Shown here: positions 2,693-19,195 of the stretch, piece after piece | How the letters are laid out: every line of letters begins with the position of its first letter | How positions within the stretch are numbered: position 1 is the first letter of the stretch | Translations under genes and position numbers: made by a program | Source of the DNA: Candidatus Chisholmbacteria bacterium RIFCSPHIGHO2_01_FULL_52_32 | Lineage (GTDB): Bacteria; Patescibacteriota; Microgenomatia; UBA1400; Chisholmbacteraceae | Assembly (NCBI GenBank): GCA_001816585.1 | Contig: MHCJ01000001.1 | Coordinates: 21,538-85,537, forward strand | Direction: 5' to 3' | DNA: 64,000 nt | Notes under the pieces: model-generated | Database searches by the model: none | The model's input: only the letters and a program-made list of their open reading frames with translations | Told to the model about the DNA's origin: nothing

Positions 2693-5600
2693 TCATTCGG
2701 AGAGAACATATTTCTGAAGATCCGCCATCCCGCGCTTCAATGCATCATAAACAATTGTCCCTCCTGCAAAAATGAGCCCGGGAACAGAATACTGATGCAG
2801 GTAGGAAAGGACGATATCCCGTTTCCTGGCATGCAGGAGCTTTTCAAGCGTTTTTGCACCATCCTCCCCAATGTACGGCCGCAGTTCCTGGACGAACCGC
2901 CACCGCTCCGCCGTTGACAAGCTCATCCCGCTCTTTCCGAACCGCCGCTGGGCAGCCGAGGAGGACTGGTTGAAAATCTTTATATCCCGCAGAGCTCCAA
3001 CCGGCCCCAGGAAAAACCCTCCGACAAATCCTAAGATTGACCCGAGCGGACCGAGCTGTTTCTTTAGGGCATACAGCTGTTTCCCCTCAACCCACGGGTC
3101 GGCCGTGTACATGTCGTTTAAGAAAACCCCTGCCAGCGAAGCGGTAATCTTCTGCCTATCTCCCTCCCCAAGATGCCCGAGCGCCTGCTTAACCTCAAGT
3201 AGCCCCTTGACAAATTCCTCGCGGCTCTGTGGGCTACCTTCCCGTGTTCCCGATAAACCCGCCGCAAGGTGAAAAATCCCCTCCGCTCCCTTACCTGCCA
3301 TCATTCCATCGATGAAACGCCTGGCATACATCCGCGGTCCTCCTGCTCCCCAATCGGTCTCCTCATGGAGAACATCATCGAGAAACGGCGCGTAGTTGAA
3401 CCGCATCCCCGCCAATTGCTCCGCAAGATCTCTTCTCTTCCCGCCATCCGTTGCCCCAAACGCCGTCAATCTCCCGATGAGCGCTTTCTCCTGATCATTA
3501 AAATTCTCATCTGGTAACAACCCGGGCACCTCCTTCATATTTAAAAGGTTCTCTATCAAAAAATCCTCATAATATTCTTCCTGCTTTTCCCGATCTAGAG
3601 GTCGTGCGCCATTACCGTCTTCCTCGCGGATCCTTTCATAGTACCCCTGCACCGCAGCCTCCTCCACCCGCCAGAGCTTCTTTTGAGTCTCCCTCCACCT
3701 ATCCCACACCTTCTTCTCCCACTTCTCACATTGCTTAGCCCATTCCTTCCGTGGCTCATCGAGATCTTTTTCCGTCTTGATTATTTTCTGCTCTCCTCCG
3801 ATCTCAACTGTGTCTCCAATCTTCATCGTAAACTCCTCCGGCCGGTCGAATTTCGTGTGGTCGGGATCCAGTTCATCCGCAATCATCCAAACGGGAAGCC
3901 GTACACCTTCCTGCCGAAAGACCTCTTCCTGTTTCCTCTCGTGCAAACGCCGATCTCTCTCAGCCTTGGTATACTGCGCCTTCTTCTCAATAAATTCCTT
4001 ATCGTGGTCATAGTCCTGATCAGCCAAAGCCCTGTTCGCAGCATACTTCTGAAACGCCTCCATTTCCCCCGCTTTACCTTGGAAAAAGACTCCCTGAAGC
4101 CTTCCATCTTTATCATGCGCCACTGACGGGAGTAGAGACAGTGTTCGCGAAGGCATCCGTTGCGGCACCTTCTCAAGTATTTTCGTCCGCTTTTCGAGCG
4201 CCTCCTTCTTCTCTTCCTTCTTATCGTCCGTAAAATCATCCGGATGTTTGGCGTTCGCCAGCTGTACCGACAGCGCCAGATCCATCCGCTCACGAAGCGC
4301 CTTGGTTGCAAGCAAAGATCGCCAAAAAGAAGAACTCCACTCCGAGCCAAAACCGAACAGGTTCTCGGGGCTGAACTTGCTCAAAAGCAGCTCATCCTGT
4401 TTGCCATGAAAGAACGCGGGCAACATCGCATTCATCTGCGACATCAACCGCTCCATGGTTTCAAGCGAATCCCCGTACTGGTCGAACCGGTCGGCAAGGA
4501 ACCGTACCGGGTTCATCGCCGTCAGGATCTTCTCAAATGGCGGGCTGTAAAGGTGGCCTAATTCATCGCGTTCCGGCAATCTTCCTTGAGCCGCATAGTC
4601 CGCCGTCCGCATATCGGCATTGGCGATCTTCAAAGCCAAGGCCGCCAACCGTTTTGCTTCCGTTTCATCAGGAGTTACTGGAAAACGCCCGCCCTCATCA
4701 CCCTCAAACGAGTGAAAAACCCTCCCTGCTTGGGAAAGCTTTAAAAGCTCCTCGGAAACGCTCTGAACAATGGAATCCGGCCCTCCTTCAAGCGAGAGCG
4801 CCTCAAAGGTCAATCTCCCCTTGTTTTTCGGATCGAAAAGTGTGCTTGCAGTTTCCTTCTCAACTAGCCGTAGTGCTACGCCCAAGCCTGGTTCCATCCG
4901 AACAATATGACTGCGGTCCCGGGAATGTCCCATGATCTCCGCACTCTTCGCAAGTTGCTCCAGATCCCCGCCGCTCTCCATGGTGACCGAGAGGTTGTGG
5001 AATAAGCGTCGCGCAACCCACCAACCCTGGTAGTCATAGTAATAACCCATCCCTCCGCCGCTCTTCACCTTTTCCAAAAACTCACCCCAAAGCTGCCAAT
5101 CCTCACTGGCGAAGTTGAACTGCTGTCGGGGATCGACCTCAGCTTCAGAAACAATTAGGTTGAAAATCCCGTCAACCGACTGCTTTGCCTGTCGCCGCTC
5201 AGCTTGCTGGTCCCTGGCCGCTTGAGTCAAAACCTCCCCATCTCTCTCCGTGGGTTTTCTCATCCGCCGGAACACCCCATCGTACTCAAGCTTCTTCATT
5301 TTCCCCAGCACTTCATAGAATCTCGGGCTATAAAGTCGCTGTGGCTCAAGAAATTTAAATGCATGCTCGCTATCCTTTCTGAATTGTTCCCTCTCTTTCT
5401 TGAACTCCCTCCCCAGCGTCTCAAGAAACTCGGGCGAGGGAACTTCATGTCTCTCCAGTATTTCATCAACCTGCGTTGCATACTTCTCCAGCTGATCGAT
5501 ATAACCCCCGAGCAAACGCACTGCCCGATGACCAACGGGAGCATGCTCAGAAGAAAGTTCTTGCACTTCCCGCTGAACATAACCCAACCTTGCCTTGGCA

Positions 5601-6325
5601 TAAGCAAGCTCACTGTCGAGATAGCCGAGAGTAAATCCTTCCTCTTCCTCAGGCTCCGCAGCCGCCTCAACCGACGGTCCCTTCATGCCTTCGGAGGGCC
5701 CTTCCGAAGGCCCAGGAATCTTCTCCGGCCTCTCAACAACGCCACCCTGTTCCGGTCGCGCTACCTCCTCGGCCGGCTTCCCTTCCGGCTTGGCTTCCTC
5801 AACCACCCCTCCCCTCAATAATCCTTCAAGCTCGAGAGACTCCCCCTTTGATAACTGTTTTGCTCCCAAAAGCCAAAGCATAACCTCAGCATCCGTTTTC
5901 GCCCCCGCCGCCCTTGCCGCCGCTATCAGTTCCTGGTACTTCTGTTCCTTAAACAGCTTCTGGATTTCCTTCCACAAGGTCCTGAGAATTGCCAACAGAA
6001 GTTTCCAAAGACCTGCCCGCTCTTTCTCGGGTATCTCCTCCCCTTTTTCTCTTTTCTTGAGGAACGCGAACAGCTGTTTGAGCTTCTCATCGGCAACTTC
6101 CGGCTTTGTCACCACTCCTTTTTCCTTGACCTTCTCCAGCGCTTCCTTGAAAAGCGCCTCCCGCATGTCCCAACTTTTGTCCACATCCTTGGCTTCAGCC
6201 GGAGGCTTCGGCTTCTCCGACCCACCACCGGAAGACCCCGCCGCCCGTCGCTCCGGCCTCTCCCTCCTGGGGGGCTTTCCTTGAGATTCCGGATTTTTCT
6301 TTAGTCCATCCTCATGCTCTGCCAT
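2693..6325 (-). CDS. large hypothetical protein (1210 aa), highly charged/coiled-coil-rich with a C-terminal hydrophobic Gly-rich segment
   Basis: Uninterrupted 3.6-kb ORF with a K/E/R-rich N-terminus and a GYYYDYQGWW motif. C-terminal segment LGPLGSILGFVGGFFLGPVGAL. No P-loop or other catalytic signature seen. Confidence 0.6.
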   Translation of the reverse strand: MAEHEDGLKKNPESQGKPPRRERPERRAAGSSGGGSEKPKPPAEAKDVDKSWDMREALFKEALEKVKEKGVVTKPEVADEKLKQLFAFLKKREKGEEIPEKERAGLWKLLLAILRTLWKEIQKLFKEQKYQELIAAARAAGAKTDAEVMLWLLGAKQLSKGESLELEGLLRGGVVEEAKPEGKPAEEVARPEQGGVVERPEKIPGPSEGPSEGMKGPSVEAAAEPEEEEGFTLGYLDSELAYAKARLGYVQREVQELSSEHAPVGHRAVRLLGGYIDQLEKYATQVDEILERHEVPSPEFLETLGREFKKEREQFRKDSEHAFKFLEPQRLYSPRFYEVLGKMKKLEYDGVFRRMRKPTERDGEVLTQAARDQQAERRQAKQSVDGIFNLIVSEAEVDPRQQFNFASEDWQLWGEFLEKVKSGGGMGYYYDYQGWWVARRLFHNLSVTMESGGDLEQLAKSAEIMGHSRDRSHIVRMEPGLGVALRLVEKETASTLFDPKNKGRLTFEALSLEGGPDSIVQSVSEELLKLSQAGRVFHSFEGDEGGRFPVTPDETEAKRLAALALKIANADMRTADYAAQGRLPERDELGHLYSPPFEKILTAMNPVRFLADRFDQYGDSLETMERLMSQMNAMLPAFFHGKQDELLLSKFSPENLFGFGSEWSSSFWRSLLATKALRERMDLALSVQLANAKHPDDFTDDKKEEKKEALEKRTKILEKVPQRMPSRTLSLLPSVAHDKDGRLQGVFFQGKAGEMEAFQKYAANRALADQDYDHDKEFIEKKAQYTKAERDRRLHERKQEEVFRQEGVRLPVWMIADELDPDHTKFDRPEEFTMKIGDTVEIGGEQKIIKTEKDLDEPRKEWAKQCEKWEKKVWDRWRETQKKLWRVEEAAVQGYYERIREEDGNGARPLDREKQEEYYEDFLIENLLNMKEVPGLLPDENFNDQEKALIGRLTAFGATDGGKRRDLAEQLAGMRFNYAPFLDDVLHEETDWGAGGPRMYARRFIDGMMAGKGAEGIFHLAAGLSGTREGSPQSREEFVKGLLEVKQALGHLGEGDRQKITASLAGVFLNDMYTADPWVEGKQLYALKKQLGPLGSILGFVGGFFLGPVGALRDIKIFNQSSSAAQRRFGKSGMSLSTAERWRFVQELRPYIGEDGAKTLEKLLHARKRDIVLSYLHQYSVPGLIFAGGTIVYDALKRGMADLQKYVLSE

Positions 6326-6455: not shown

Positions 6456-6509
6456 CATTGTTATATTGCTACATTGAAACATTGCTGCTCTTTTTGTAAA
6501 GTTCCAATC

Positions 6510-6884
6510 ATGAAGAAGTATTTAAAGTTGAATGACATTAATTGCTATAAAAGGTCCCTGACGCTATCACAACATGTGTGGGAGATTGTGAATTCGTGGG
6601 AAAAGTTCGCCAAAAGCACTGTTGGTATCCAATATGTCAAAGCCATAGATTCAATTTCCGCAACGATTTCCGAAGGTTTCGGGCGCTTCTTTAAGAAAGA
6701 TAAGATCTTGTTTTACCGCTATAGCCTGGGTTCCGTAACTGAAGCTCTTGATTGGACCCAAAAATCCTGGAAGCGCAAACTCCTAACGAAAGTTCAATAT
6801 GAACATATCTTGAATGAACTTCAAGAACTTCCAAGGGAAATTCGCTATCTGATCAAATTCACAGGTGAAAAATTGAAGAAGTAA
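6510..6884 (+). CDS. four-helix-bundle protein (23S rRNA IVS protein family), second copy
   Basis: ATG at 6510 (MKKYLKLNDINCYKRSLTLSQHVWEIV...). Motifs GFGRFFKKDKILFYRYSLGSVTEALDW match the family. The ORF track's TTG start at 6474 is also possible. Confidence 0.65.
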   Translation: MKKYLKLNDINCYKRSLTLSQHVWEIVNSWEKFAKSTVGIQYVKAIDSISATISEGFGRFFKKDKILFYRYSLGSVTEALDWTQKSWKRKLLTKVQYEHILNELQELPREIRYLIKFTGEKLKK

Positions 6885-7350: not shown

Positions 7351-7793
7351 AGGAGCCCACGGAGATTTCTTCACCCTTTTGCAGCCGCCGCAGTTTCCCG
7401 AACGGAACATGAGCGGGAAACCAAAACTGACCTCTTTCCCTAAATCCCCTTTGAACGCAGCTACTCGAGAATGAAGTGAGCGAATTCCTTTAAAAAGTCA
7501 TCGACTGTCCGACGAAGGGTTTATCCCGAGGAGTTTGATGACATGGGATGAGCGAACAAGTTCCCGAGAGATCGTTCGCTGGGGTGCCCTTCTTTTGGAT
7601 ACTTTTCTCGGGCAAGCAAGAAAAGGATCAATCCATTTGTGTGCGCAAAGAAGCAACTGCCATTCTTGGACTGGCAAAGACGGCCCCAATTCTGTCTGGA
7701 GTATAAAATTTCTTTACCTAATCCATTTCCACCTGCTATGATGAGCAAAGAACCACAAAACCATCTCATCAACTTTTAACGTATTGCTCTTAA

Positions 7794-7831: not shown

Positions 7832-10675
7832 ATGCCCGACCAACCTCCGATAAAAGAGCCTCCGCCGACATCTCCGCCAATCTCGAAAGAAGGATCCCAG
7901 CCTCTCGAGAGCCGATTCCAAAACTACCTCACCCTCCGTCGCCATATTAATGACCAATTCCTCATCAACGCCTCGGCGAAGGCCTCGCCGTTCTTATCCT
8001 CCGAGGTCAACCCCGCCCTCACCCAAACTGCTGCACATATCATTGGCCAACGCGCCATCCGCTATCTCCCGGAAGGGGACATCACTCAACCCGACCTCAT
8101 TCAGGCTATCCTGGCCGCCCAAAATGAGCTTGCCGATCGCGAGGTCTGGTTTGCGGCAACCCTTCCCAATAAAACCGATCGGAAGATCCTCGCCGAAACC
8201 ATAAGCCTTACGATAAGTCCTTCGCAAGCCCAGGCCGCGGTCCAGGAAGAAGCCGCCTTTGCCCAAGCGACACTCGATGATCTTCCCGAAAAACAAACTG
8301 CCATAGCCCAGATCGAAGCGGAACTGGTCAATGCCGGTGTCGATCCCAAAAAAAGCAAAACCCTGGCAACCCAGTTGAACACCCGCTTCGAAACTTGGTC
8401 CGAAAGAAGCCAAGCCGCTACCCCCCCACCCGTCATCCATGCCTTCGTCCGTCAAGCCGTTGGGCGCAGGATTGAAAACACACAAAATCTCTCGGAACGG
8501 TTGGCTCAAAAAGACGGTTTACACCAACGCACCGAGGCGATTGGTCACAACGCGGACAAAGGCCTCTCCTCGATCAAAAAAGGCCTCAAGATCACCGGCA
8601 GATTCCCGACCTCTCCGGGACTGCAAAAGGTCGGCAGGGTCCTCAAAGCCGGGGATATTATCAGCCACCCATTCTTCTACGCCAGAAGAGCCATTACTTT
8701 CCCCTTCCGCTATCTCGGCAGACAGATTGCCAGGCCGATGGTAAAGTTCGCCAAACGCACCGCCATCAAAGTGACATCCTGGACCGTGAAAAGGGTGGCC
8801 GCCTTCCTCGTCAAGGTCGGCCTCGGTTCTCTGGTCCGCTATGCGGAAGAGCTCGCCCTCGCCGGTACAGGCTTCGGCCTCCCCCTCGCCATCGCCCAAG
8901 AGCTCTTCTTCATCGGAACCGGAAAGTTCTTCAAGACCGTTAAACGAATAGCCAATGACTATAAAGAAACCTTCCGTGAGGGTATGCGAAACCCGCTCCT
9001 GGGTAGTCTGAAGTTTATCGGAACAGTAGCTGATCACGGCAGTAGCGTGGTCTTCGGCTCAGCCGGAGCCGTCCTCGGTACAGTATCGGGCGTCGCGATC
9101 GGTGCCCTGATCGGCTCGGTCGTTCCGGTTGTGGGTACCATCATCGGCGGTATCATCGGCGGCATTGCCGGAGGCGTCTTCGGCGCCGGCGTTGGGGCGG
9201 ACTTCGGCTACAAGCTGCGCAAAAGAGTTGAGAAAATGCTCAAAGCCAGGCTTGTCCTCTACCTCCTCATGAAAGCTCTCATCGCGAAACTCACCGGTGT
9301 TGTCGTCGGCTTTGGCCTAGGCGGCGTGCTCGGCTTTTTGTTGTCGGGAGGAAACCCATTAGGAGCTGTCCTCGGCGGCCTGACCGGAGGCTTCATCGGA
9401 GCCAACGCCCCGCAAATCCTCCAAGCGGTCAAGAATTTCGTCCTCAATGCCTGGCAATCAGCCTCCGGGGCCTTCCAGTCCCTCACCGCCGGACCGGGGC
9501 TTGTTTCCCAAACCGTTTCTGGGGTCGGTAACCTTCTCGGGCAAATACCATCCACCATTGCCAAAGGCTTCAACACCGCCACCGGCTGGATCAGCGGAAC
9601 AACCGTCAACACCGCCGCCACCGCGGAAAGTATCGGCGGCCAGATATTAACGACCGGTCCCTCGGCAACCCTCGTAGCCACACCGATCGCCACGGTCGGC
9701 CTTGTCACGCTCTTCTCCCTTATTGCCTACTCAGTCTTAACCGCCGCCTTCTTCGTCCCCCCGACCGAAGTCACTCCATTTTATGACGATCCCTCAAGAT
9801 TTATAAAGATCAGAAAACAAGCTTGCGTTGCCGGTACAGCCCCATTTGGATGTACACAAAACCAAATGAACCTCCCCAACCCGACCGAACAAGGCCCCTA
9901 CACCATCACCTACACCATCACCGTTGAGGCAACCGACCGCACCCTCACCGCCGTCACCATCAAGGACGAGTACACCAGCTTCGGCCGGTACCAAAGCCCT
10001 ACCAAAGCCCCAGAGGCTCCGCCCGCTCCCCCAGCCAGAACCTGGGACGGGGGAATTGTCATCCAAAACGGGCGACCCTGGACAACCACCCTAACCGTAA
10101 GCATTCCCAAAGCCACTATCTGGGACGATGCCATCCTCACCAATACGGTCACCGTCACGGCCACCGTTGAAGGTTTCTCTGATGAAGTAACCAACTCTAA
10201 GTCAGTCACCCTCATCTTCGGCAACCCACCCTTCTGCCCTCCGAATGGAGATCCTCTCGACAATCCATATTCCGTATCCGGGTATAGATACCTGAATCCT
10301 CTTTTCCATACTGGAGTCGATATCACCAATGGCTTCGGCAACCCGATATATTCAACCTTCCCTTGCCAGGCGCAAGTGGTCTTTTCCGGCTGGGGCACTG
10401 GTGGTTTCGGCTACTTCGTTGCGTTGCAAAGCGGGACTTGGTTTGCCTTCTATCCCCACATGGCCACCGATCCAGATGTCGGTGTAGGCGATATTGTCGG
10501 ATTCGGCACCGTGCTTGGGGCAGTGGGCAGCACCGGTAACTCTAGCGGCCCCCATCTCCATTACGAGATTAGAGACGGCACAAAAGGTGCTGTAAATCCA
10601 GCCGATAACTATCAACCACCCCTCACTGTCAATCCCTGCGACTTTGGTATAAATCCAACGAATTCATGTAACTGA
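7832..10675 (+). CDS. large membrane protein with glycine-zipper TM region and C-terminal M23/LytM peptidase domain; putative T4SS-associated cell-wall hydrolase (VirB1/PrgK/TcpG analogue)
   Basis: 947 aa. Middle region has multiple GxxxG-rich TM helices (GAVLGTVSGVAIGALIGSVVPVVGTIIGGIIGGIAGGVFGAGVGA). A Thr-rich beta-repeat region follows. C-terminus carries the M23 motifs HTGVDI...GYFVALQSG...GSTGNSSGPHLHYEI. Confidence 0.7.
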   Translation: MPDQPPIKEPPPTSPPISKEGSQPLESRFQNYLTLRRHINDQFLINASAKASPFLSSEVNPALTQTAAHIIGQRAIRYLPEGDITQPDLIQAILAAQNELADREVWFAATLPNKTDRKILAETISLTISPSQAQAAVQEEAAFAQATLDDLPEKQTAIAQIEAELVNAGVDPKKSKTLATQLNTRFETWSERSQAATPPPVIHAFVRQAVGRRIENTQNLSERLAQKDGLHQRTEAIGHNADKGLSSIKKGLKITGRFPTSPGLQKVGRVLKAGDIISHPFFYARRAITFPFRYLGRQIARPMVKFAKRTAIKVTSWTVKRVAAFLVKVGLGSLVRYAEELALAGTGFGLPLAIAQELFFIGTGKFFKTVKRIANDYKETFREGMRNPLLGSLKFIGTVADHGSSVVFGSAGAVLGTVSGVAIGALIGSVVPVVGTIIGGIIGGIAGGVFGAGVGADFGYKLRKRVEKMLKARLVLYLLMKALIAKLTGVVVGFGLGGVLGFLLSGGNPLGAVLGGLTGGFIGANAPQILQAVKNFVLNAWQSASGAFQSLTAGPGLVSQTVSGVGNLLGQIPSTIAKGFNTATGWISGTTVNTAATAESIGGQILTTGPSATLVATPIATVGLVTLFSLIAYSVLTAAFFVPPTEVTPFYDDPSRFIKIRKQACVAGTAPFGCTQNQMNLPNPTEQGPYTITYTITVEATDRTLTAVTIKDEYTSFGRYQSPTKAPEAPPAPPARTWDGGIVIQNGRPWTTTLTVSIPKATIWDDAILTNTVTVTATVEGFSDEVTNSKSVTLIFGNPPFCPPNGDPLDNPYSVSGYRYLNPLFHTGVDITNGFGNPIYSTFPCQAQVVFSGWGTGGFGYFVALQSGTWFAFYPHMATDPDVGVGDIVGFGTVLGAVGSTGNSSGPHLHYEIRDGTKGAVNPADNYQPPLTVNPCDFGINPTNSCN

Positions 10676-10694: not shown

Positions 10695-11759
10695 ATGCAA
10701 TATCGTCTTTCACTCTCCACATTGAAAAGGATCCTCTCCGTAAAAACGGCTCTGTTAATCCTTCTCGTGATTATAATTTTCACCTTAATCGTAGTTATCC
10801 AAAGAGCGCGTCGGAAAGAAACACAACCTCCGGGGGTAAACCCCACATTCGGAGATATTCCTGCCCCAAAACCATCGTACGTTTCCCAGATGAAACCACC
10901 TCAATCAACCGAACTAACACCAGATGAGCAAATCAACCTCAGTGAAACTGCCACTGTCTTCCGACGCGCCTCAACCACACTGACCGATAAACAGGCCAGA
11001 GATATCGCACGTTCATTCGGAATCTCAGGAGAACCCCTGACCTCAAAAACCTCTGTAACATTCCGTGAGAATAACCGCGTGCTTATCGTCAGCTTCAAAA
11101 AAGGTTCGCTTTCATACTTCGAACCCTTGCAGGAGTATCTGAAAGACTTCAGACAGAAAGCCTTGGAAGATTATGCTCTGATTCTCCTCAAACAGCTTTA
11201 CCCCGGGGATCCGCTTTGGGCAAACCCAAAAGTCAAGACTGGTTTCTTCACCATCATTGAGATGCAAGACTTCAAACCCACTGCTCCAAATAAAGCCGAT
11301 CTTGCAATCGTCGATCTTTATCCCACAATCGAGGGACTAAGCATTGTTGGCCCCTTCGATCCCTTCGGACACACCGGAATGGTAAGTATACAATTCAATA
11401 AAAGAGACGGCAGCCTCGTGTTAAACGGCCTGCCAACAGGACTGAACACAGCCCAGGTTGGTACCTATCCGCTGAAGAGCCTTGACGCAGTCCAAGAGGA
11501 AATCAAGCTTGGCCAAGTAACGTTAACTGCCACCATTCCTGAAGGGCAAACCCCAAAAAGCGTGGACTGGGGACAAAACCTCGATCCAACCAAGGCTAGC
11601 TTTACTTCAATCGAACTGGTCTACTACTATGATCCCGATCCTAACGCTTTCCTTCAGCCTATATACCTTTTTTCCGGAAAAACCACCCTTACCGACGGAC
11701 GCCCCGCCAACATTTTCGCCATCCTCCCCGCCATCGACCCCCAATACCTCAAGCCCTAA
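10695..11759 (+). CDS. bitopic membrane-anchored protein (N-terminal TM, ~300-aa extracytoplasmic domain); possible VirB8/TcpC-like
   Basis: TM helix ALLILLVIIIFTLIVVI near the N-terminus. Size and topology resemble TcpC/VirB8-type proteins, but no motif-level support. Confidence 0.5.
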   Translation: MQYRLSLSTLKRILSVKTALLILLVIIIFTLIVVIQRARRKETQPPGVNPTFGDIPAPKPSYVSQMKPPQSTELTPDEQINLSETATVFRRASTTLTDKQARDIARSFGISGEPLTSKTSVTFRENNRVLIVSFKKGSLSYFEPLQEYLKDFRQKALEDYALILLKQLYPGDPLWANPKVKTGFFTIIEMQDFKPTAPNKADLAIVDLYPTIEGLSIVGPFDPFGHTGMVSIQFNKRDGSLVLNGLPTGLNTAQVGTYPLKSLDAVQEEIKLGQVTLTATIPEGQTPKSVDWGQNLDPTKASFTSIELVYYYDPDPNAFLQPIYLFSGKTTLTDGRPANIFAILPAIDPQYLKP

Positions 11760-11794: not shown

Positions 11795-11874
11795 GCCCTT
11801 GTGAGAAAGAGTAAGGAGTAAGTGTAAAGTCGTTAAAGACTTACCACCTATTCCTATTCACTTATTCCTTGTTT

Positions 11875-12978
11875 ATGGAACAGCACCCCGTCCCCCAGCA
11901 AATCTCCGCCTACCACTTTCGCTTGGTTGGCGACATGACCATCAAACAATTCGTCGAGCTTGCCGGCGGCATCGTCGTCGGCTGGGTCATCTACTCCCTC
12001 CCCGTCCACGCGATCCTCCGCTGGCCCCTGGTGATTTTCTCGGTGTTCGTCGGCATCGCCCTGGCCTTCCTCCCCTTTGAAGAGCGGCCTCTGGATCGCT
12101 GGTTTTTTGCCTTCATCAAAGCCATCTACTCCCCAACCCAGCTCCTCTGGAGAAAGGCGCCAATCGTTCCCGCCTTCTTCGAAGAAATACAGGTTTCCGC
12201 ACCATCCGCCGCGGAAGAAAGGAGCGGTGCTGACAAAACCAGGCTCCAAGAATACTTGGAAACCCTCCCGGCCCAAGGACCCATGACAAACATCGATAAA
12301 AAAGAGCTGCACTTCGTCTCGGACATCATGAAGCTCTATTTAGAAGTCCAACCCACCACCATCCAAGCCGTTCGTCCGGCTCGCCCGATCCTTGAGGAAG
12401 AACGCGTTCCTAAGGTAGCGGTCCGCAAGCTCAAAACCCCGCCGCTTGATCCCCGCGCGATTATGCGGGGCGAAATCATCATGCCCAAGCGCACTTCTGG
12501 TAAACCGAGGAAAATTCAGATTCCCAAATTCGAACCGATCGAGGTAGACAAGTTCGCGGGGGTCCTCCCCACCCCACCTTCTCCTATTTCCCCGCAGGAG
12601 ACCCCAGCCCTCGATTTGGGAGGAATTTCCCCGGCCGCCACCATCAGGCCGAAACAACCCCAAAGACCTTCCGTCCAGGCAAGCGTCCGCCCGGACCTCC
12701 CCATCCCAACTCCCCCGACCGAACCGAACGTCCTTGTTGGCATGGTGGTCGACAGAGAAGGGAATATTCTCGATAACACCATCGTGACAATCAGAACTAA
12801 GGAAGGAAATATCGCTCGTGCCCAGAAGACCAACAAAATCGGTCAATTCTTTATCATCACCCCCCTCGAAAACGGAACCTACGCGGTCGAAGTTGAGCGG
12901 GAGGGCTTCACCTTTGATATAATCAAAATCGAGCTTATCGGAAAACCGGTCCCGCCAATCGATATCCGCGCCAAATAA
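11875..12978 (+). CDS. VirB3/PrgI-like 2-TM protein fused to a C-terminal carboxypeptidase-regulatory-like (prealbumin-fold) domain
   Basis: N-terminal hairpin of two TM helices (GGIVVGWVIYSLPV...LVIFSVFVGIALAFLPF) sits immediately upstream of the VirB4 genes, as PrgI/VirB3 does. A Pro-rich linker follows. C-terminus VGMVVDREGNILDNTIVTIRTKEGN...GTYAVEVEREGFTF resembles a CarboxypepD_reg beta-sandwich. Confidence 0.5.
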   Translation: MEQHPVPQQISAYHFRLVGDMTIKQFVELAGGIVVGWVIYSLPVHAILRWPLVIFSVFVGIALAFLPFEERPLDRWFFAFIKAIYSPTQLLWRKAPIVPAFFEEIQVSAPSAAEERSGADKTRLQEYLETLPAQGPMTNIDKKELHFVSDIMKLYLEVQPTTIQAVRPARPILEEERVPKVAVRKLKTPPLDPRAIMRGEIIMPKRTSGKPRKIQIPKFEPIEVDKFAGVLPTPPSPISPQETPALDLGGISPAATIRPKQPQRPSVQASVRPDLPIPTPPTEPNVLVGMVVDREGNILDNTIVTIRTKEGNIARAQKTNKIGQFFIITPLENGTYAVEVEREGFTFDIIKIELIGKPVPPIDIRAK

Positions 12979-13027: not shown

Positions 13028-13978
13028 ATGGCTCCCGCCCCAATCCAAGCCTCAACCCAAGAACACCTCGAACTTGAGGATATCATCGACAATCTCATCA
13101 TTTTAAAAGACGGCTCTGCCGCCATGATTATCACCACGACGGCCGTCAACTTCGGTCTCCTCTCAGAATCAGAGCAGGACGCAACCATCTACGCCTACGC
13201 CGCGCTGTTGAACTCCCTCACCTTTCCCATCCAGGTCCTCATCCGCTCAAACCGAAAGGACATCACCGGCTACGAAAAGCTTCTCTCCGAGCAGGAAGCC
13301 CGGACTCCCAAGCCGGAGAACAAAGAGCGCATCCGAAAATATCGGGAGTTTATCCAAGAAACCGTCCGTCAACGGAATGTGCTGGACAAAAAGTTCTATA
13401 TCATCATTCCGTTCTCCGTGCTCGAACTGGGAGTGGCCAAATCCGCCTCAGCCATCGCCAAAGGCACCCGCCACACCCTTCCCTTTCCGAAGGACTACAT
13501 CGCCGGTCGAGCCAAGGTTGCCCTTGAACCAAAGCGCGACCACCTCCTTCACCAGCTAGCCAGGCTCGGTCTGCGCGCAAGGCAACTCACCACCAAAGAG
13601 CTGATTCAGCTCATGTTTGAAATCTACAATCCCGAAAGTGCCCAAGGACAGCTTCTCGCTCCTCCGGAGGAGTATCAAACTCCCCTTGTTCGAGCGGCCA
13701 TCGCTTTCCAGGAGCTCCCCCAAATCGAACCCCCCCAACCGCAACCGGCAAAACCGCCTTTCCAAGCCCCTCCTCCGCCCTTAAACCCATTACCGGGAAG
13801 TCAGCCTCAAGTAGTAAGAGAAAATCCTGGACTATCCCAATCCGGCCCCCAAATCACAAGGGAAAATGCCCCGCCTGCTCCCCCCCAAACAACAATCGGA
13901 GATTCAGGCTTTGAGAAACAAGCCCAATCGACCATCGATTCAGCGATGAGCGGTGTCAATGTGAAGGAGGAAGTCTAA
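13028..13978 (+). CDS. VirB4/TrbE N-terminal-domain protein with Pro-rich C-terminal tail (apparent N-terminal half of a split VirB4)
   Basis: LEDIIDNLIILKDGSAAMIITTTAVNFGLLSESEQDATIYAYAALLNSLTFPIQVLIRS follows the l.KDGs...fe..G.dle..s..E.......N.aL..L pattern of TraC/TrbE/VirB4 N-termini. Stop TAA 13976-13978 overlaps ATG 13978 of the next ORF (TAATG). Confidence 0.55.
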   Translation: MAPAPIQASTQEHLELEDIIDNLIILKDGSAAMIITTTAVNFGLLSESEQDATIYAYAALLNSLTFPIQVLIRSNRKDITGYEKLLSEQEARTPKPENKERIRKYREFIQETVRQRNVLDKKFYIIIPFSVLELGVAKSASAIAKGTRHTLPFPKDYIAGRAKVALEPKRDHLLHQLARLGLRARQLTTKELIQLMFEIYNPESAQGQLLAPPEEYQTPLVRAAIAFQELPQIEPPQPQPAKPPFQAPPPPLNPLPGSQPQVVRENPGLSQSGPQITRENAPPAPPQTTIGDSGFEKQAQSTIDSAMSGVNVKEEV

Positions 13979-15930
13979 TGCCCGCCCTCGACATCATCCA
14001 AAAAATCCTCCCTGGGGCAAAACCAAAAGAAGGCCCCCAAGTTTCCCAACCAGGGGCAACACCGGGGAAAAATCCCGTCACCTCCACAAAATCGCGGGCC
14101 GTCGCCCAAAAGCTCGGCACGGGCATGGTCTCCATTCAAGACATCATTGCTCCCGAATCAATTGATGTGGACTTTTCACACTTAAAAATCGGTAATGCCT
14201 ATGTCAGAACCCTCTTTGTCGCTGGCTACCCCAGGTTCGTCAGCGCCAATTGGTTGGCTCCCTTGATAAACTTCGAGCACTCTCTCGATGTATCAATGTT
14301 CATCTATCCTGTCGAGGGCCGCGAGGTCCTCGATGAGCTCAGGCGGAAAATTGGCGAGATGGAGGCGGAAATCGAATCAGATCTCAAGCGCGGTCATATC
14401 GCCGTGGTTGATACGGAAATAAAGCTTGCCGATGCCAAGGCTCTCCAAGAAGAGCTCGCCAAAGGGGCGGAGCGCTTTTTCCAGTTCGGACTCTACGCCA
14501 CCATCACGGCAGTAACACTCGACGAGCTCAGCTCCACCACCAGAAGGGTCCAATCGCTCCTGGGCTCTCTGCTCATCATTTCCAAATCCGCAACCCTCCA
14601 AATGGAGGAAGGCTTCAAAACCACCCTTCCCCTCGGTCAAGACCGCCTTGTGATTACCCGCAATATGGATACCACCTCCCTTGCCACAACCTTTCCCTTC
14701 ACGTCTTCCGAGCTTACCGCCAACGAAGGCATTATGTATGGAATAAACGAACACAACGATTCCCTCATTATCTTCGACCGATTTAGCCTGGAAAATGCCA
14801 ACATGGTCATTTTCGGGAAAAGCGGTTCAGGGAAAAGCTTCTTTGAGAAACTCGAAATCATGCGCTCCTTAATGTTCGGGGTCGAAGTGATCGTCATCGA
14901 TCCCGAAGAAGAATATCGCCGGCTCTGCGATGCCCTTGGGGGAACCTACATTGACTTTGGCTACAATGCACCGGCGAAAATCAACCCCTACGACCTCTCC
15001 GCAATCTACGAGGAAGGGGAAAACGAGCTTGGTCTAAAAATCCTCTCCCTCCATGGACTATTAAAGGTGATGCTTGGCGATGTAACACCGAACGAAGAGG
15101 CAATCCTCGACAGAGCCCTCATTGGCACGTACAAAGCCCGAGGTATCACCCCGGATCCCGCTACCCAACGGAACGAACCGCCACTCATGGAGGACCTCTA
15201 TAAGACACTCATTGGCATGGAGGAAGCCACGGCCAAAGGGCTTTCCGACAGGCTCGAGAAATATGTCAAAGGATCATTCAGAAGCTTCTTCGATCAACAG
15301 TCCAACGTCGACCTGAAGAATTCCCTCACGGTTTTCTCTCTCAAAGAGCTGGAGAACGAAACTCGCCCGATCATCATGTACATCATCCTCGACTACATCT
15401 GGACTAAAGTGAAACGGGATATGAAAAAGCGCCTGGTCGTCGTCGATGAAGCCTGGTACCTGATGAAAAACGCGGACTCGGCTACCTTCCTCTACTCAAT
15501 CGCGAAACGGGCCCGCAAATACTTCCTCGGCCTCACCACCATCACCCAAGACGTCGAAGATTTCCTTGGATCTGACTACGGACACGCAATTATCACCAAC
15601 TCCTCAATCCAGATCCTATTCAAGCAGTCATCGGCCGCCATCGAGCGTCTCGCCGAAGCCTTTTACCTCTCAGAGGGAGAAAAGCATCTCCTTTTGGCCG
15701 CTGATGTTGGCGAGGGATTGTTTTTTGCCGGGCAAAACCACGTAGCCATGCGCGTTGTCGCCTCATCCGAGGAACATCACCTCATCACCACCAAACCCCA
15801 AGAGCTTGTAGAGCTGGAAAGAGAAAAAGAAGAAACCTCCCCCCGAACGACCGCAGCAGTTCCCCGCCCGGGGGAACGGCCGACCCCAACCAACCCACAG
15901 CCCAAAGGGCCTCCCGCTACCAGCTACTAG
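13978..15930 (+). CDS. virB4: VirB4/TrbE/CagE-family T4SS ATPase (PrgJ/TcpF-like)
   Basis: Walker A IFGKSGSGKSFF; Walker B LVVVDEAWYL. Core region RTLFVAGYPRFVSANWLAPLINFEHSLDVSMFIYP matches the CagE_TrbE_VirB domain. 650 aa. Confidence 0.85.
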   Translation: MPALDIIQKILPGAKPKEGPQVSQPGATPGKNPVTSTKSRAVAQKLGTGMVSIQDIIAPESIDVDFSHLKIGNAYVRTLFVAGYPRFVSANWLAPLINFEHSLDVSMFIYPVEGREVLDELRRKIGEMEAEIESDLKRGHIAVVDTEIKLADAKALQEELAKGAERFFQFGLYATITAVTLDELSSTTRRVQSLLGSLLIISKSATLQMEEGFKTTLPLGQDRLVITRNMDTTSLATTFPFTSSELTANEGIMYGINEHNDSLIIFDRFSLENANMVIFGKSGSGKSFFEKLEIMRSLMFGVEVIVIDPEEEYRRLCDALGGTYIDFGYNAPAKINPYDLSAIYEEGENELGLKILSLHGLLKVMLGDVTPNEEAILDRALIGTYKARGITPDPATQRNEPPLMEDLYKTLIGMEEATAKGLSDRLEKYVKGSFRSFFDQQSNVDLKNSLTVFSLKELENETRPIIMYIILDYIWTKVKRDMKKRLVVVDEAWYLMKNADSATFLYSIAKRARKYFLGLTTITQDVEDFLGSDYGHAIITNSSIQILFKQSSAAIERLAEAFYLSEGEKHLLLAADVGEGLFFAGQNHVAMRVVASSEEHHLITTKPQELVELEREKEETSPRTTAAVPRPGERPTPTNPQPKGPPATSY

Positions 15931-15966: not shown

Positions 15967-17115
15967 CTACTTCTGCACCCGAACGGGCATGATCAGATGA
16001 AAAAAAGCTTCCTTTTCAGAAGCAGGGCGGAACACCCCGGGATCCAATCCCCCATTCATTCCAAACACTATCTTCTCCGTCGGAAAAATGGACAAAAGCT
16101 CTAAAAGATACCGGCTGTTAAAAGCGATCTCGCCCTCCCCTCCGGAAAGAGAAATCTCAACCATGTTTTCGCCTTCACCATATGAAGGGGCGTTGGCAGA
16201 AATCGTCAGTCCGGTCTTCTGAAGCTTCCACTGAATGATGTTTGCGCTATCCCGAGCAAAAATCGCAGCCGCTCGAACTGCCCTGAGGAGGGACTCACGA
16301 TCGATGTTCGCCACAATCTTCTCCTCTTTGGGAATAACTTGAGAAAAGTTGGGGAAAGACCCCTCGATGAGCCGGGTTGTCACTTCCCCGTCGCCAAGGC
16401 GGAACATGAGAAGATTCTGTTCAGGAACGAGCCCAAAAGACACTTCGGAAGCGCCAAGCTCATCCGCCAAACGGTCGACATCCCGTAAAGCGCGTGCCGG
16501 GACAATCAATCCCTCTCCTACCACCTTTTTTAGTGCCTTCTGCCACTTCTCTCCTTTCTTTTCCGAATCGGATGAAAGCTGTACCACGCTCAAGCGATAG
16601 CCATCGGTAGCTACAAACTGTAGTCCATTCCCTTCAAGCCTCAGCAAAACGCCGGAGAGGACCGGCCGTGTCTCATCGGAGGATGCCGCAAACACAACCC
16701 TCTCCACTGCCTCCCGAAACGAAGAAACAGGGAGGGAAAACTCCCCGGTACCCGAAACTTGGCTTAAAGATGGAAACTCCATCGCAGGAATACCGGAAAG
16801 TCGGGCCCGATAGGAACCGCACTGGATCCGAAGCGATTCTCCCTCCAAAGACAGCTCAACCGGAGCCAGCGGAAAAGACGAAACAAGCTCACCAAAAACC
16901 TTCGCCGGAACCGTTATCGCTCCCTCTTTCTTTACCTTCGCCCCAATCCGAAGCTGAATCCCCAGACTTAAGTCCGTCGCAGCCAGCTGGAGGATTCCCT
17001 CTTTCGCTGTCAGCAGAACATTCGAAAGAATAGGCAGAGACGGTTTAGAAGAAACCGCATAGGCAACTGACGAGAGACCCTTAACGAGCTTATCCTGAAG
17101 AACTGAAACCTGCAT
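15967..17115 (-). CDS. dnaN: DNA polymerase III beta sliding clamp
   Basis: 382 aa with typical three-domain clamp sequence (LSNVLLTAKEGILQLAATDL...). Adjacent to dnaA. Confidence 0.9.
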   Translation of the reverse strand: MQVSVLQDKLVKGLSSVAYAVSSKPSLPILSNVLLTAKEGILQLAATDLSLGIQLRIGAKVKKEGAITVPAKVFGELVSSFPLAPVELSLEGESLRIQCGSYRARLSGIPAMEFPSLSQVSGTGEFSLPVSSFREAVERVVFAASSDETRPVLSGVLLRLEGNGLQFVATDGYRLSVVQLSSDSEKKGEKWQKALKKVVGEGLIVPARALRDVDRLADELGASEVSFGLVPEQNLLMFRLGDGEVTTRLIEGSFPNFSQVIPKEEKIVANIDRESLLRAVRAAAIFARDSANIIQWKLQKTGLTISANAPSYGEGENMVEISLSGGEGEIAFNSRYLLELLSIFPTEKIVFGMNGGLDPGVFRPASEKEAFFHLIMPVRVQK

Positions 17116-17288
17116 AATTCCCTCCTGAATAATGATTATAAACAGTTGTTCCGAAAGAAGATATCAACAAACATTAAAAGCCACCTTCCTCCGTCCTACT
17201 ACAGAGTATATATAGTAGTAAGAGTAGCAGGTGTTGAGGAAAAGTATAAAACTCACGACTCTCCCTCTGTTAGTTTCTTCATTCCTTC

Positions 17289-17355
17289 GTGTGCAAAAAA
17301 GGACCTGTTATTGTGGAAAAGATTGTGGAAAAAAGGGGATAGTTTGTGGAAAAAC
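17289..17355. promoter_or_regulatory. cluster of four DnaA-box variants (GTGTGCAAAA, TTGTGGAAAA x2, TTTGTGGAAAAA) in the dnaN-dnaA intergenic region
   Basis: Direct repeats of TGTGGAAAA, one mismatch from the TGTGGATAA consensus, spaced 13-20 nt. An AT-rich stretch (AGTATATATAGTAGTAAG, 17197-17215) lies nearby. Confidence 0.55.
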
Positions 17356-17421
17356 CGAAACCTCCCCGGGAGGTATCGTTCAAGGACAAGCCATGTCCGA
17401 GCCTGGAAAGAGCCAAGATAG

Positions 17422-18798
17422 CTAACCATATATTTTTTTACGAATAGTAGAAAGATCGATGCGCAAGGATTCGGAATCGGAAAGCTCGTTGCTGATTTTT
17501 TCGATGGCATGCATGACCGTAGTGTGATCGCGCCCCCCGAGAAGACCCCCAATTTCCTCAAGGGGAAGATGGTGGTCCATGCGAAGGATATACATCGCAA
17601 GGTGCCGCGGCCCAACATAGATCTTTAGCCGCTTTGGTCCCTCAAGGATGGAGGATTTGAGGTTGAAGTGAGCGGCAACGATATGAATAACCTCCTTGGG
17701 TCGTGCGGTCGGCCGCAAGCGAGCCTCTCGATCGTTAAGATTGGATAAAAGGCCGCGTACGAGCTCTTCGGAGATTGGCTGGTTACGAAGCCGTGCTTCA
17801 GAAACGAGACGGGTCAAAAACCCCTCGAGTTTACGGGCGCTCTCAACATTTGCAGAGATGAGCTTTGCCGCATCGATGGGAAGAGTAACATGAAGCGTTC
17901 TGGCTTTAATAAGAAGAATGGCGGTCCGGAGCTCAAAATTAGGTTGTTGAATATCGATAATCAAGCCTCCCTCAAAACGGCTTCGCAGCCGATCCTCAAG
18001 GCCATCAATCGCGTGAGGGGGTTGGTCTGAAACCAGAACAACCTGTCCCCCTTCGCGTTGAATGGCATTGAAGGTATGGAAAAATTCCTCCTGTACCGTG
18101 GCTTTCCCAGCGATGAACTGGATGTCATCGATGAAGAGAGCGCTTGCGCTGCGGTACTTTTTCTTGAAAGGATGGGTCTCTTTCCGCCGGATGGCCTCGA
18201 TGATTTCGTTGGTAAATTCTTCCCCAGTACAATAGATGAGGGAAAGGTCCGGATGGTCTTTGAGCATCACATGACAAATGGCCTGGGTGAGGTGGGTTTT
18301 CCCCACCCCGACACCCCCGTAAATATAGAGGAGATTGTAGGCTCGTCCGGGAGACTTTGCCACCGCCTGTGCCGCGGCATGGGCCATCTCATTTGAGGAA
18401 GAAACCGCAAATGTTTCGAAAGTAAAGTCCTCCCGAAGCCGGACCCGCAGGACAGCGTCATGGTAAAGCTGAGCGAAGGTATCTTCTGATCGAAAAAGGG
18501 GGGCAGCTTCAGAAATTGGGACAGACGGGGCAGCGGTGAAACTGGCAACGGTTAAGACCAGCTCATTGTTTTGTTTGGTGATGCGATCCAACGCCTCTTT
18601 TATCTGGCCGACGTAGCGTTCTTCAATGAATTGCTTGTGATATGCGCTTGAGCAGGCAATCTCGACGATCTGTCGGCCAACATCAACCTGTTGAACCCGT
18701 ACCAGGTGAGTCGGAGCCATCCACGTCATAAAATTACCGTGGGATAACGAGACTTCAAGGTCGGACAGAACAGTTTTCCACAATTGAGCTGTGGTCAT
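17422..18798 (-). CDS. dnaA: chromosomal replication initiator protein DnaA
   Basis: AAA+ motifs GGVGVGKTHL and LFIDDIQF; C-terminal DNA-binding domain (RDHTTVMHAIEKI). Start set at conserved MTTAQLWKTV (ATG 18796-18798). The longer ORF to 19116 would overlap rpmH. Confidence 0.9.
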   Translation of the reverse strand: MTTAQLWKTVLSDLEVSLSHGNFMTWMAPTHLVRVQQVDVGRQIVEIACSSAYHKQFIEERYVGQIKEALDRITKQNNELVLTVASFTAAPSVPISEAAPLFRSEDTFAQLYHDAVLRVRLREDFTFETFAVSSSNEMAHAAAQAVAKSPGRAYNLLYIYGGVGVGKTHLTQAICHVMLKDHPDLSLIYCTGEEFTNEIIEAIRRKETHPFKKKYRSASALFIDDIQFIAGKATVQEEFFHTFNAIQREGGQVVLVSDQPPHAIDGLEDRLRSRFEGGLIIDIQQPNFELRTAILLIKARTLHVTLPIDAAKLISANVESARKLEGFLTRLVSEARLRNQPISEELVRGLLSNLNDREARLRPTARPKEVIHIVAAHFNLKSSILEGPKRLKIYVGPRHLAMYILRMDHHLPLEEIGGLLGGRDHTTVMHAIEKISNELSDSESLRIDLSTIRKKIYG

Positions 18799-18886
18799 AG
18801 CAGTCAAGAGGCAGGGGAAAACCAGGTTAGTAACAGGCGGCCCTACAAAAGGGGAAGGAACCGCAAGCGTGAAGATCTTTGCAAGT

Positions 18887-18994
18887 TTTCCACAATTAGT
18901 CAACCCACAGATTCCCCAAAAGTGGAAAAAATAATGAGGCGCAAGCGGACGCGTACCCGCGCTATCGTCCGGTTCTTCAACCGACGTGGAAAAG
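18887..18994. promoter_or_regulatory. DnaA-box variants TTTTCCACAA (18887-18896), AGTGGAAAAA (18921-18930) and CGTGGAAAAG (18985-18994) in the dnaA-rpmH intergenic region; candidate oriC and dnaA promoter region
   Basis: Read directly. Same 9-mer core as the 17289-17355 cluster. Confidence 0.5.
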
Positions 18995-19006
18995 CGAAAC
19001 CGGGGG

Positions 19007-19015
19007 TGGTAGAAT
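19007..19015 (+). promoter_or_regulatory. extended -10 promoter TGgTAGAAT for rpmH
   Basis: GGTGGTAGAATACG lies 28 nt upstream of ATG 19043. SD-like AAAGGGG lies between. Confidence 0.45.
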
Positions 19016-19042
19016 ACGTTTAAACAGAGAAAGGGGCTGAAG

Positions 19043-19195
19043 ATGCCAAAAAGAACCTGGCAACCAAAAAAAAGAAAGCGGGCCAAAAAGCACGGCTTCC
19101 GAAACAGACAAAGCACAAAACAGGGAAGAAAGACGATGAAAAGAAGACGCGCGAAGGGAAGGAAAACGCTCGCAGTAGTGGTAAAGAGGCGATAG
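19043..19195 (+). CDS. rpmH: 50S ribosomal protein L34
   Basis: 50-aa [53 protein letters not shown]. Below the ORF-track length cutoff; found by manual translation. Sits in the canonical position upstream of rnpA. Confidence 0.85.

Follow-up and report, generated by a model that had tools for sequence, protein, structure and literature searches.

In the genome of Candidatus Chisholmbacteria bacterium RIFCSPHIGHO2_01_FULL_52_32, a stretch of 64,000 nucleotides (nt; hereafter the window) carries two consecutive plus-strand open reading frames (ORFs), ORF1 (13028..13978, 316 aa) and ORF2 (13978..15930, 650 aa), each of which resembles part of VirB4. The locus therefore raises the question whether a single virB4 gene has been broken here by a mutation or an assembly error, or whether the protein is genuinely encoded in two pieces. 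Type IV secretion systems (T4SSs) have VirB4 as their signature ATPase, and it is, to our knowledge, the only protein universal to them. We are nearly certain that ORF1, a stand-alone VirB4 N-terminal module (TrsD-like; PF26593 "TraC-like"), and ORF2, a VirB4 without its first N-terminal module, represent a conserved two-gene VirB4, and consider it highly probable that they are products of an ancient virB4 gene fission, the halves of which probably reassemble as a two-subunit VirB4.

Judged by its sequence, ORF2 is a VirB4. Residues 49-591 match positions 183-734 of 752 in the NCBIfam model NF045971 conju_CD1110 (E 6e-120) with 401.7 bits, over the curated cut-off of 325, and the matches to VirB4_plasma and TIGR00929 VirB4_CagE cover positions 293-893 of 894 and 239-724 of 792, respectively. 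Pfam matches include P-loop_TraG (110 bits against a cut-off of 25.8), AAA_10 and DUF87, and residues 247-603 match the C-terminal domain of Thermoanaerobacter VirB4 (PDB 4ag5, E 1e-45). ORF2 consists of a low-complexity leader (residues 1-48), a second half of the N-domain (~49-246), the ATPase (247-603) and a low-complexity C-terminal tail. The conserved block following the leader contains IAPESIDVDF and RTLFVAGYPRF, and the ATPase carries a Walker A motif, GKSGSGKS (residues 280-287; 14815..14838, +), and a Walker B motif, VVVDEAW (residues 487-493; 15436..15456, +), all in agreement with the original prediction of a leader followed by the VirB4 core. What ORF2 does not possess is a complete N-terminal domain: its CD1110 match begins at profile position 183, and CD1110 positions 1-~180 find no counterpart.

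Profile matches and a structural model both indicate that the core of ORF1 is equivalent to the first ~180 residues of a fused VirB4. This core, residues 12-205 (13061..13642, +), is predicted by AlphaFold2 (AF2) as an alpha/beta domain, with predicted local distance difference test (pLDDT) values mostly between 75 and 98. ORF1 residues 11-127 align with VirB4_plasma positions 105-233 (E 4e-7), and residues 26-129 with CD1110 positions 18-121 (E 6e-3), upholding the VirB4 N-terminal signature initially ascribed to the first ORF. When the AF2 model was compared with PDB structures in Foldseek, nine chains of TrwK/VirB4 from the R388 T4SS ranked first, with probability up to 1.00 over ~187 columns (E 3e-3), while phmmer of ORF1 against PDB sequences returned low-complexity noise only. 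PF26593 occurs as a protein of its own and also at the start of fused VirB4s (P0241 and P0244); on the exact 316-aa ORF1 its precomputed match is flagged "weak", the model is not among the matches of the local Pfam scan, and a full-text literature search for "PF26593" gave no match. The match of ORF1 to the TrsD/TraD family model (NCBIfam NF041427) is confined to residues 14-64 and amounts to 22 bits (E 1e-4), far short of the cut-off of 200 bits; ORF1 is a remote relative.

The two ORFs cover consecutive, non-overlapping parts of the same full-length VirB4 profiles. In the alignment to full-length VirB4 that the original prediction had proposed as a check, ORF1 accounts for the first ~180 positions and ORF2 for the rest. 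To compare them with one-piece proteins, family hidden Markov models (HMMs) were built from 120 homologues each. On the fused 754-aa VirB4 of Carboxydocella pCCELLA01 (CTH_10029), the ORF1-family HMM matches residues 11-182 (E 3e-24, a value that refers to a tiny database, as do the other E-values of this comparison) and the ORF2-family HMM residues 184-747, so that the two matches adjoin without overlap; on a 1,344-aa fused protein of Rubrobacter, they match residues 116-244 and 376-978, respectively. The ORF1-family HMM has no match in ORF2 (E=1). Because the matches adjoin without overlap and the ORF1 HMM finds nothing in ORF2, ORF1 is the piece missing from ORF2 rather than an extra copy of something ORF2 already has. 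The N-terminal domain of VirB4 spans residues 15-400 in TrwK (PMC9259494), and by the alignments the break falls in the middle of this domain and not at the boundary between N-domain and ATPase. The original division into an N-domain ORF and an ATPase ORF thus holds in that the two are complementary VirB4 pieces, but not as a domain assignment, since ORF2 keeps the second half of the N-domain.

How old is the break? If one virB4 gene had recently been disrupted by a frameshift or nonsense mutation, or by an error of one base in the assembly, leaving a pseudogene or an artefact, relatives should not share the break. A scan of species-representative genomes found 387 relatives, from which 80 loci were taken, and every one of the 77 that were evaluable, species-level Patescibacteria loci throughout, encodes the N-module and the ATPase in separate ORFs, the very recurrence that had been proposed as a check on the split. 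Many different junctions occur among them. With the start codon picked heuristically as the one nearest to the upstream stop, the junction is a 4-nt ATGA overlap in 21 loci and TAATG in eight, including the window; the others are overlaps of 7-29 nt or gaps of 1-395 nt, and all three frame relations occur. Database searches are in line with the genome scan. ORF1 has 2,610 homologue clusters at E<=1e-3, and the best 120 of these are all 225-385 aa long, nearly all PF26593-tagged, and derive from Chisholmbacteria, Microgenomates, Pacebacteria and other Patescibacteria, whereas the best 120 ORF2 homologues are 597-722 aa long and without the PF26593 tag. An exhaustive profile search with the ORF1 domain yielded 2,902 representatives at 50% identity (1,421 at E<=1e-10), and in all 2,902 the domain lies at the extreme N-terminus. 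Thousands of stand-alone homologues with strongly conserved cores are not what a decaying or misassembled gene would leave behind. Many loci that are clearly of the Patescibacteria type (L009-L019, L013, L077 and others) belong to metagenome-assembled genomes whose public titles read "uncultured Gammaproteobacteria/Pseudomonadales bacterium", "Bathyarchaeia archaeon" or "Clostridia bacterium"; these names are probably placeholders or the result of mis-binning.

The junction itself is what could most readily suggest an accident, as the two ORFs lie in different frames with a 1-nt overlap, and the ORF1 tail contains C7 homopolymers at 13730 and 13880. ORF1 stops with TAA at 13976-13978 and ORF2, in the -1 frame relative to ORF1, starts with ATG at 13978-13980, forming the TAATG overlap (13976..13980, +) exactly as first reported. 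Neither C7 run could give rise to a single ORF through an indel, because the nearest upstream stop in the ORF2 frame (13912-13914) closes that frame downstream of both runs. The only interval in which a shift or an indel could join the frames is therefore 13915-13975, and no homopolymer was found in it. The exact 316-aa ORF1 occurs on at least 24 contigs from several projects, and JGI 3300002502 and three ENA assemblies agree letter for letter across the junction, while their flanks differ by a few single-nucleotide polymorphisms; among these independent JGI/ENA assemblies there is no evidence for a single-base error at the junction. Moreover, ORF2 has an ATG preceded by a canonical Shine-Dalgarno sequence, AAGGAGG (13964..13970, +), placed inside the end of ORF1 and 7 nt before the ATG. 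Taken together with the 77 split relatives, these findings reduce the chance of a recent disruption or assembly error to practically nil, and the frameshift or nonsense reading offered by the original prediction has to be given up in favor of the genuinely split, two-subunit VirB4 that it had also proposed.

The overlap also invites another explanation, namely that programmed frameshifting or recoding at TAATG yields a full-length fused VirB4 besides, or instead of, the two separate products. The -1 relation of the overlapping ORFs and the existence of fused VirB4s in other lineages speak for it. However, no slippery heptamer of the form X_XXY_YYZ is found in 13900-13976, ORF2 has its own Shine-Dalgarno sequence and ATG, and there is no conserved recoding signal, because relatives show all three frames, overlaps of 1-29 nt and gaps of up to 395 nt. 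Recoding, likewise among the possibilities first listed, is accordingly a highly improbable account. Translational coupling was the remaining option of the original prediction; the overlap and the strong Shine-Dalgarno sequence make it plausible, and in the window likely, that ORF2 translation is coupled to ORF1 termination. No terminator-like or promoter-like site was found on the plus strand at the junction.

The split VirB4 of the window belongs to an arrangement that is already known. In Patescibacteria, TrsD, whose remote homology to the N-terminus of VirB4 has been described (Quinonero-Coronel et al. 2025, Microb Genom, PMC12102498), is the commonest T4SS component, with 2,272 homologues, 1,664 of which adjoin virB4, and it is essential in Ca. 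Southlakia epibionticum ML1; the T4SS locus often lies beside dnaA, dnaN, rnpA and rpmH (PMC12102498). The window presents exactly this context, a TrsD-like gene beside virB4 near dnaA and dnaN. It shares with the Patescibacteria TrsD and VirB4 pairs the lineage and the gene pair, its best relatives being Chisholmbacteria and Microgenomates metagenome-assembled genomes, as well as an upstream PrgI/VirB3 gene, an M23 peptidase and nearby dnaN, dnaA, rpmH and rnpA, and we see no substantive difference from those pairs. The order in the window, from VirB3-like PrgI through the N-module (ORF1) to the N-truncated VirB4 (ORF2), is the TrsD-type split order. The accessible portion of PMC12102498 contains no explicit statement that the partner VirB4 is without the segment equivalent to TrsD, in other words of a complementary fission, nor of a breakpoint common to pSK41 or other monoderm systems or of re-fused variants within the split clade. 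Complementary fission, the common breakpoint and nested re-fusion are modest refinements and not a new kind of system.

The common breakpoint emerges from a comparison with plasmids. In Staphylococcus pSK41 (pSK41/pGO1), TrsC (VirB3-like, 135 aa), TrsD (227 aa) and TrsE (672 aa) follow one another in the same order, and TraD/TraE of pIP501 are a further pair of this kind. The ORF1-family alignment matches pSK41 TrsD in hhalign with a probability of 74% (E 3e-5, 178 columns, 22% identity), pairing ORF1 residues 8-201 with TrsD residues 32-216, and the ORF2 family aligns with TrsE from TrsE residue 7 onwards (E 2e-63). Since TrsE aligns with ORF2 from its first residues, the breakpoint in pSK41 is the same. 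The two systems differ in that the homology to TrsD is very remote, TrsD has no Pro-rich tail, and pSK41 serves plasmid conjugation and includes a relaxase and a coupling protein; the window locus, by contrast, lies in the chromosome beside the origin. Searches of plasmids with tblastn revealed further split sets, PrgI followed by a 337-aa protein and a 661-aa DUF87 ATPase in Miltoncostaea oceani (Actinomycetota), and a 116-aa protein, a 274-aa protein, a 621-aa CD1110 VirB4 and an M23 peptidase in Pontibacillus (Bacillota), as well as the fused forms of Carboxydocella and Rubrobacter. By these alignments, the breakpoint is identical in Patescibacteria, Staphylococcus, Pontibacillus and Miltoncostaea. 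Fused VirB4s, such as CD1110 of Bacillota integrative and conjugative elements, Carboxydocella CTH_10029 and R388 TrwK, have the same domain content and order as the window, but are one polypeptide, whereas the window chain is broken after about the first 200 N-domain residues and both new ends bear low-complexity extensions. VirB3-VirB4 fusion proteins also exist, according to PMC12102498; they and the window show the chain of VirB3, VirB4 N-module and VirB4 motor partitioned differently among genes, albeit in opposite directions, fusion there and fission here, and the window contains no such fusion. TrsD is not named in the main text of Guglielmini 2014, so its homology to VirB4 is cited here from PMC12102498, and the pNP40 and pIP501 papers contain no functional data on the N-module. 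The "TraD" of pELF was considered as a relative and rejected, being a VirD4-type protein.

A natural fusion inside the split clade bears directly on whether the two polypeptides act together. P0293 is a 787-aa one-chain protein comprising an N-module (residues 4-204) and an ATPase (427-732); it occurs on three contigs from two sample sets (L086:4001-6364; L087:877-3240) in the usual context of PrgI, VirB4, M23 and dnaN, and the fused 829-aa P0244 shares 79% identity with it. When the ATPase parts are compared by neighbour-joining, P0293 groups with the split VirB4 of L066 as its sister (84% identity) and next with the split one of L072, and a secondary re-fusion is the simplest reading of this placement. 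About 15 residues join the N-module core of P0293 to the conserved IAPxSIxVDF block, with neither tail nor leader in between, which suggests that a covalent chain can do without these low-complexity extensions. As a natural fusion, P0293 argues that the two polypeptides work as one unit and that the C-terminus of ORF1 lies near the N-terminus of ORF2.

On this basis, a sequence of steps can be proposed for the split VirB4. One mRNA would carry both ORFs, and coupling of ORF2 initiation to ORF1 termination through TAATG and the strong Shine-Dalgarno sequence would provide the two products in roughly equal amounts. The ORF1 and ORF2 polypeptides would then associate non-covalently into a complete VirB4 protomer. 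In R388, VirB3 wraps the VirB4 N-domain and the N-domains mediate VirB4 dimer contacts (PMC9259494); the ORF1 module would supply part of that wrapped surface and of the N-domain contacts, linking the ORF2 motor to the membrane-embedded PrgI/VirB3. We regard the physical reassembly of the halves in this manner as probable.

The chief competing explanation holds that ORF1 is an independent accessory protein of the TrsD type, such as an assembly factor, a regulator or a substrate adaptor, which shares ancestry with the VirB4 N-terminus and acts outside the protomer. The literature assigns TrsD no function, and the tails of the family are highly variable and reach ~500 aa, both of which would suit such a protein. 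Several further observations weigh against reassembly and, in part, favor an accessory role. Physical association of ORF1 with ORF2 or with PrgI is predicted rather than demonstrated, and the Foldseek E-values of ORF1 (3e-3) are marginal. Strict one-to-one coupling of the two genes is not universal, because L082 (Microgenomates bacterium ADurb.Bin219) has an N-module gene with no VirB4 ATPase within 4 kb on either side, and TrsD genes of Gracilibacteria are not adjacent to virB4, according to PMC12102498. Nor is termination-reinitiation coupling conserved, because many junctions are gaps and Shine-Dalgarno-like 4-mers precede ORF2 in only 25 of 69 related loci, as compared with 9% of random 15-mers. 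In addition, an AF2 model of P0293, built with both half-families as partial alignment rows, is of moderate quality (pLDDT 75.8, predicted TM score (pTM) 0.57), with an N-module less confident than that of ORF1 alone, and although its domains follow the order of full-length TrwK over ~830 aligned columns (E 8e-25), the superposition has a root mean square deviation of ~25 Å. Against the accessory-protein explanation, ORF2 and TrsE are without exactly the segment that ORF1 and TrsD provide, all split systems compared share one breakpoint, and fused relatives join the halves directly and in the same order, one of them nested within the split clade. Mere resemblance to a VirB4 N-terminus would not predict a partner missing that very part. 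We therefore consider an independent accessory role quite unlikely, and prefer a two-subunit VirB4 assembled from ORF1 and ORF2.

The new ends created by the fission differ widely among relatives. The Pro/Gln-rich, low-pLDDT tail of ORF1 (residues 206-294; 13643..13909, +) is predicted to be disordered and contains 26% Pro (23 of 89 residues), substantiating the Pro-rich low-complexity tail noted at the outset. In homologues, its counterparts measure 13-190 aa with a median of 34, and in some they reach ~500 aa. Some homologues, among them P0325, P0318 and P0314, have Q/N/P/T/S-rich low-complexity tails, a total length of up to 715 aa and no Pfam domain. We take the tail and the leader to be lineage-variable flexible extensions, which would not be conserved functional elements. 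In the AF2 model of ORF1, the tail is followed by a short predicted C-terminal helix, FEKQAQSTIDSAM (residues 295-307; 13910..13948, +), which fits a QxxID-type motif (xQxxIDxxh) common to many long-tailed homologues (alignment A1, columns ~388-400) and missing from short-tailed homologues and from the fused P0293; a docking role is conceivable for this helix. At the new N-terminus of the ATPase half, too, a motif recurs, M-[KN]-L-P-F-[FL]-K-K-K-K, of which the window carries the variant MPALDIIQKILPGAKPK (13978-14010). In its [hydrophobic]P[hydrophobic] form, the motif is found at 43 of 69 loci (pairs from L005-L084), and its co-occurrence with the C-terminal helix motif of ORF1 is not significant (Fisher p=0.12).

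These termini figure in a more speculative extension of the fission reading, in which the break is adaptive and not neutral. With a detachable, VirB3-binding half of the N-domain, the ATPase ring would be able to attach to the membrane platform and come off it again, with tethering by the disordered tails and by the terminal motifs (the QxxID helix of ORF1 and the MKLPFLKKKK-like motif of ORF2). We rate this extension as unlikely. If it were true, the stoichiometry of the N-module could differ from that of the motor (compare the VirB4central and VirB4outside subunits of R388), and monoderm and Patescibacteria T4SSs would gain a regulated assembly step absent from one-piece VirB4s.

A separate feature of related virB4 genes is an insertion of ~580 aa directly after Walker A, present in seven of 69 (L015, L024, L040, L041, L057, L064 and L081; 1172-1265 aa) and absent from the window ORF2. 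It ends in FVHN|SYLVKLE, which resembles the C-terminus of an intein in having HN before a +1 Ser. The P-loop of these proteins thus probably houses an intein that carries an insert the size of a homing endonuclease.

The genes around ORF1 and ORF2 mark the window as the T4SS locus close to the replication origin in a Chisholmbacteria-like bacterium of the Patescibacteria. The apparent operon begins, behind a promoter-like site at 7713-7742 (a consensus match only), with a 947-aa protein (7832..10675, +) that has a Gly-zipper- and transmembrane-rich middle and a C-terminal M23 peptidase domain (residues 825-923, Pfam Peptidase_M23, E 2e-17); it is a probable cell-wall hydrolase of the T4SS with a VirB1-like role, and M23 proteins also flank virB4 at related loci. 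In the lineage of the window the M23 gene lies upstream of PrgI, whereas in other lineages it directly follows virB4 (L002, L003 and L086 were compared), and gene order in the locus has therefore been rearranged between clades. Next comes a conserved neighbour of 354 aa (10695..11759, +) with an N-terminal hydrophobic segment, also present in independent assemblies, for which Pfam and NCBIfam scans gave no family match. The PrgI-family (VirB3-like) membrane protein follows (11869..12978, +; public gene call beginning at ATG 11875), with a Pfam PrgI match above the cut-off at residues 7-91 (E 2e-7) and a long C-terminal extension comprising a Pro-rich linker and a CarboxypepD_reg-like beta-sandwich (Pfam match at residues 289-348, E 8e-6). 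At 367-369 aa, it is unusually long compared with the ~120 aa of PrgI/VirB3-like proteins in the plasmid systems compared. Downstream of ORF2, on the minus strand (15967..19116), ORF translations identify dnaN (15967-17115; DNA_pol3_beta Pfam matches on an identical gene) and dnaA (17422-19116), followed by rpmH, rnpA, yidD and yidC. Elsewhere in the window, two plus-strand genes of the "23S rRNA-intervening sequence protein" family (PF05635; 809-1174, E 2e-19, and 6474-6884, E 2e-18) flank a 1,210-aa minus-strand ORF (2693-6325) without a family match.

The architecture of this locus is thus of an ordinary, already documented kind, widespread in Patescibacteria and found in some Gram-positive plasmids as well. 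Among Patescibacteria, a single species has been tested genetically, and its epibiotic growth requires the T4SS. Recognising the split VirB4 avoids annotating such loci as pseudogenes or frameshifts, and understanding ORF1/TrsD as the missing first half of the VirB4 N-domain would give a very common "hypothetical" family a concrete structural role, that of a bridge between VirB3/PrgI and the motor.

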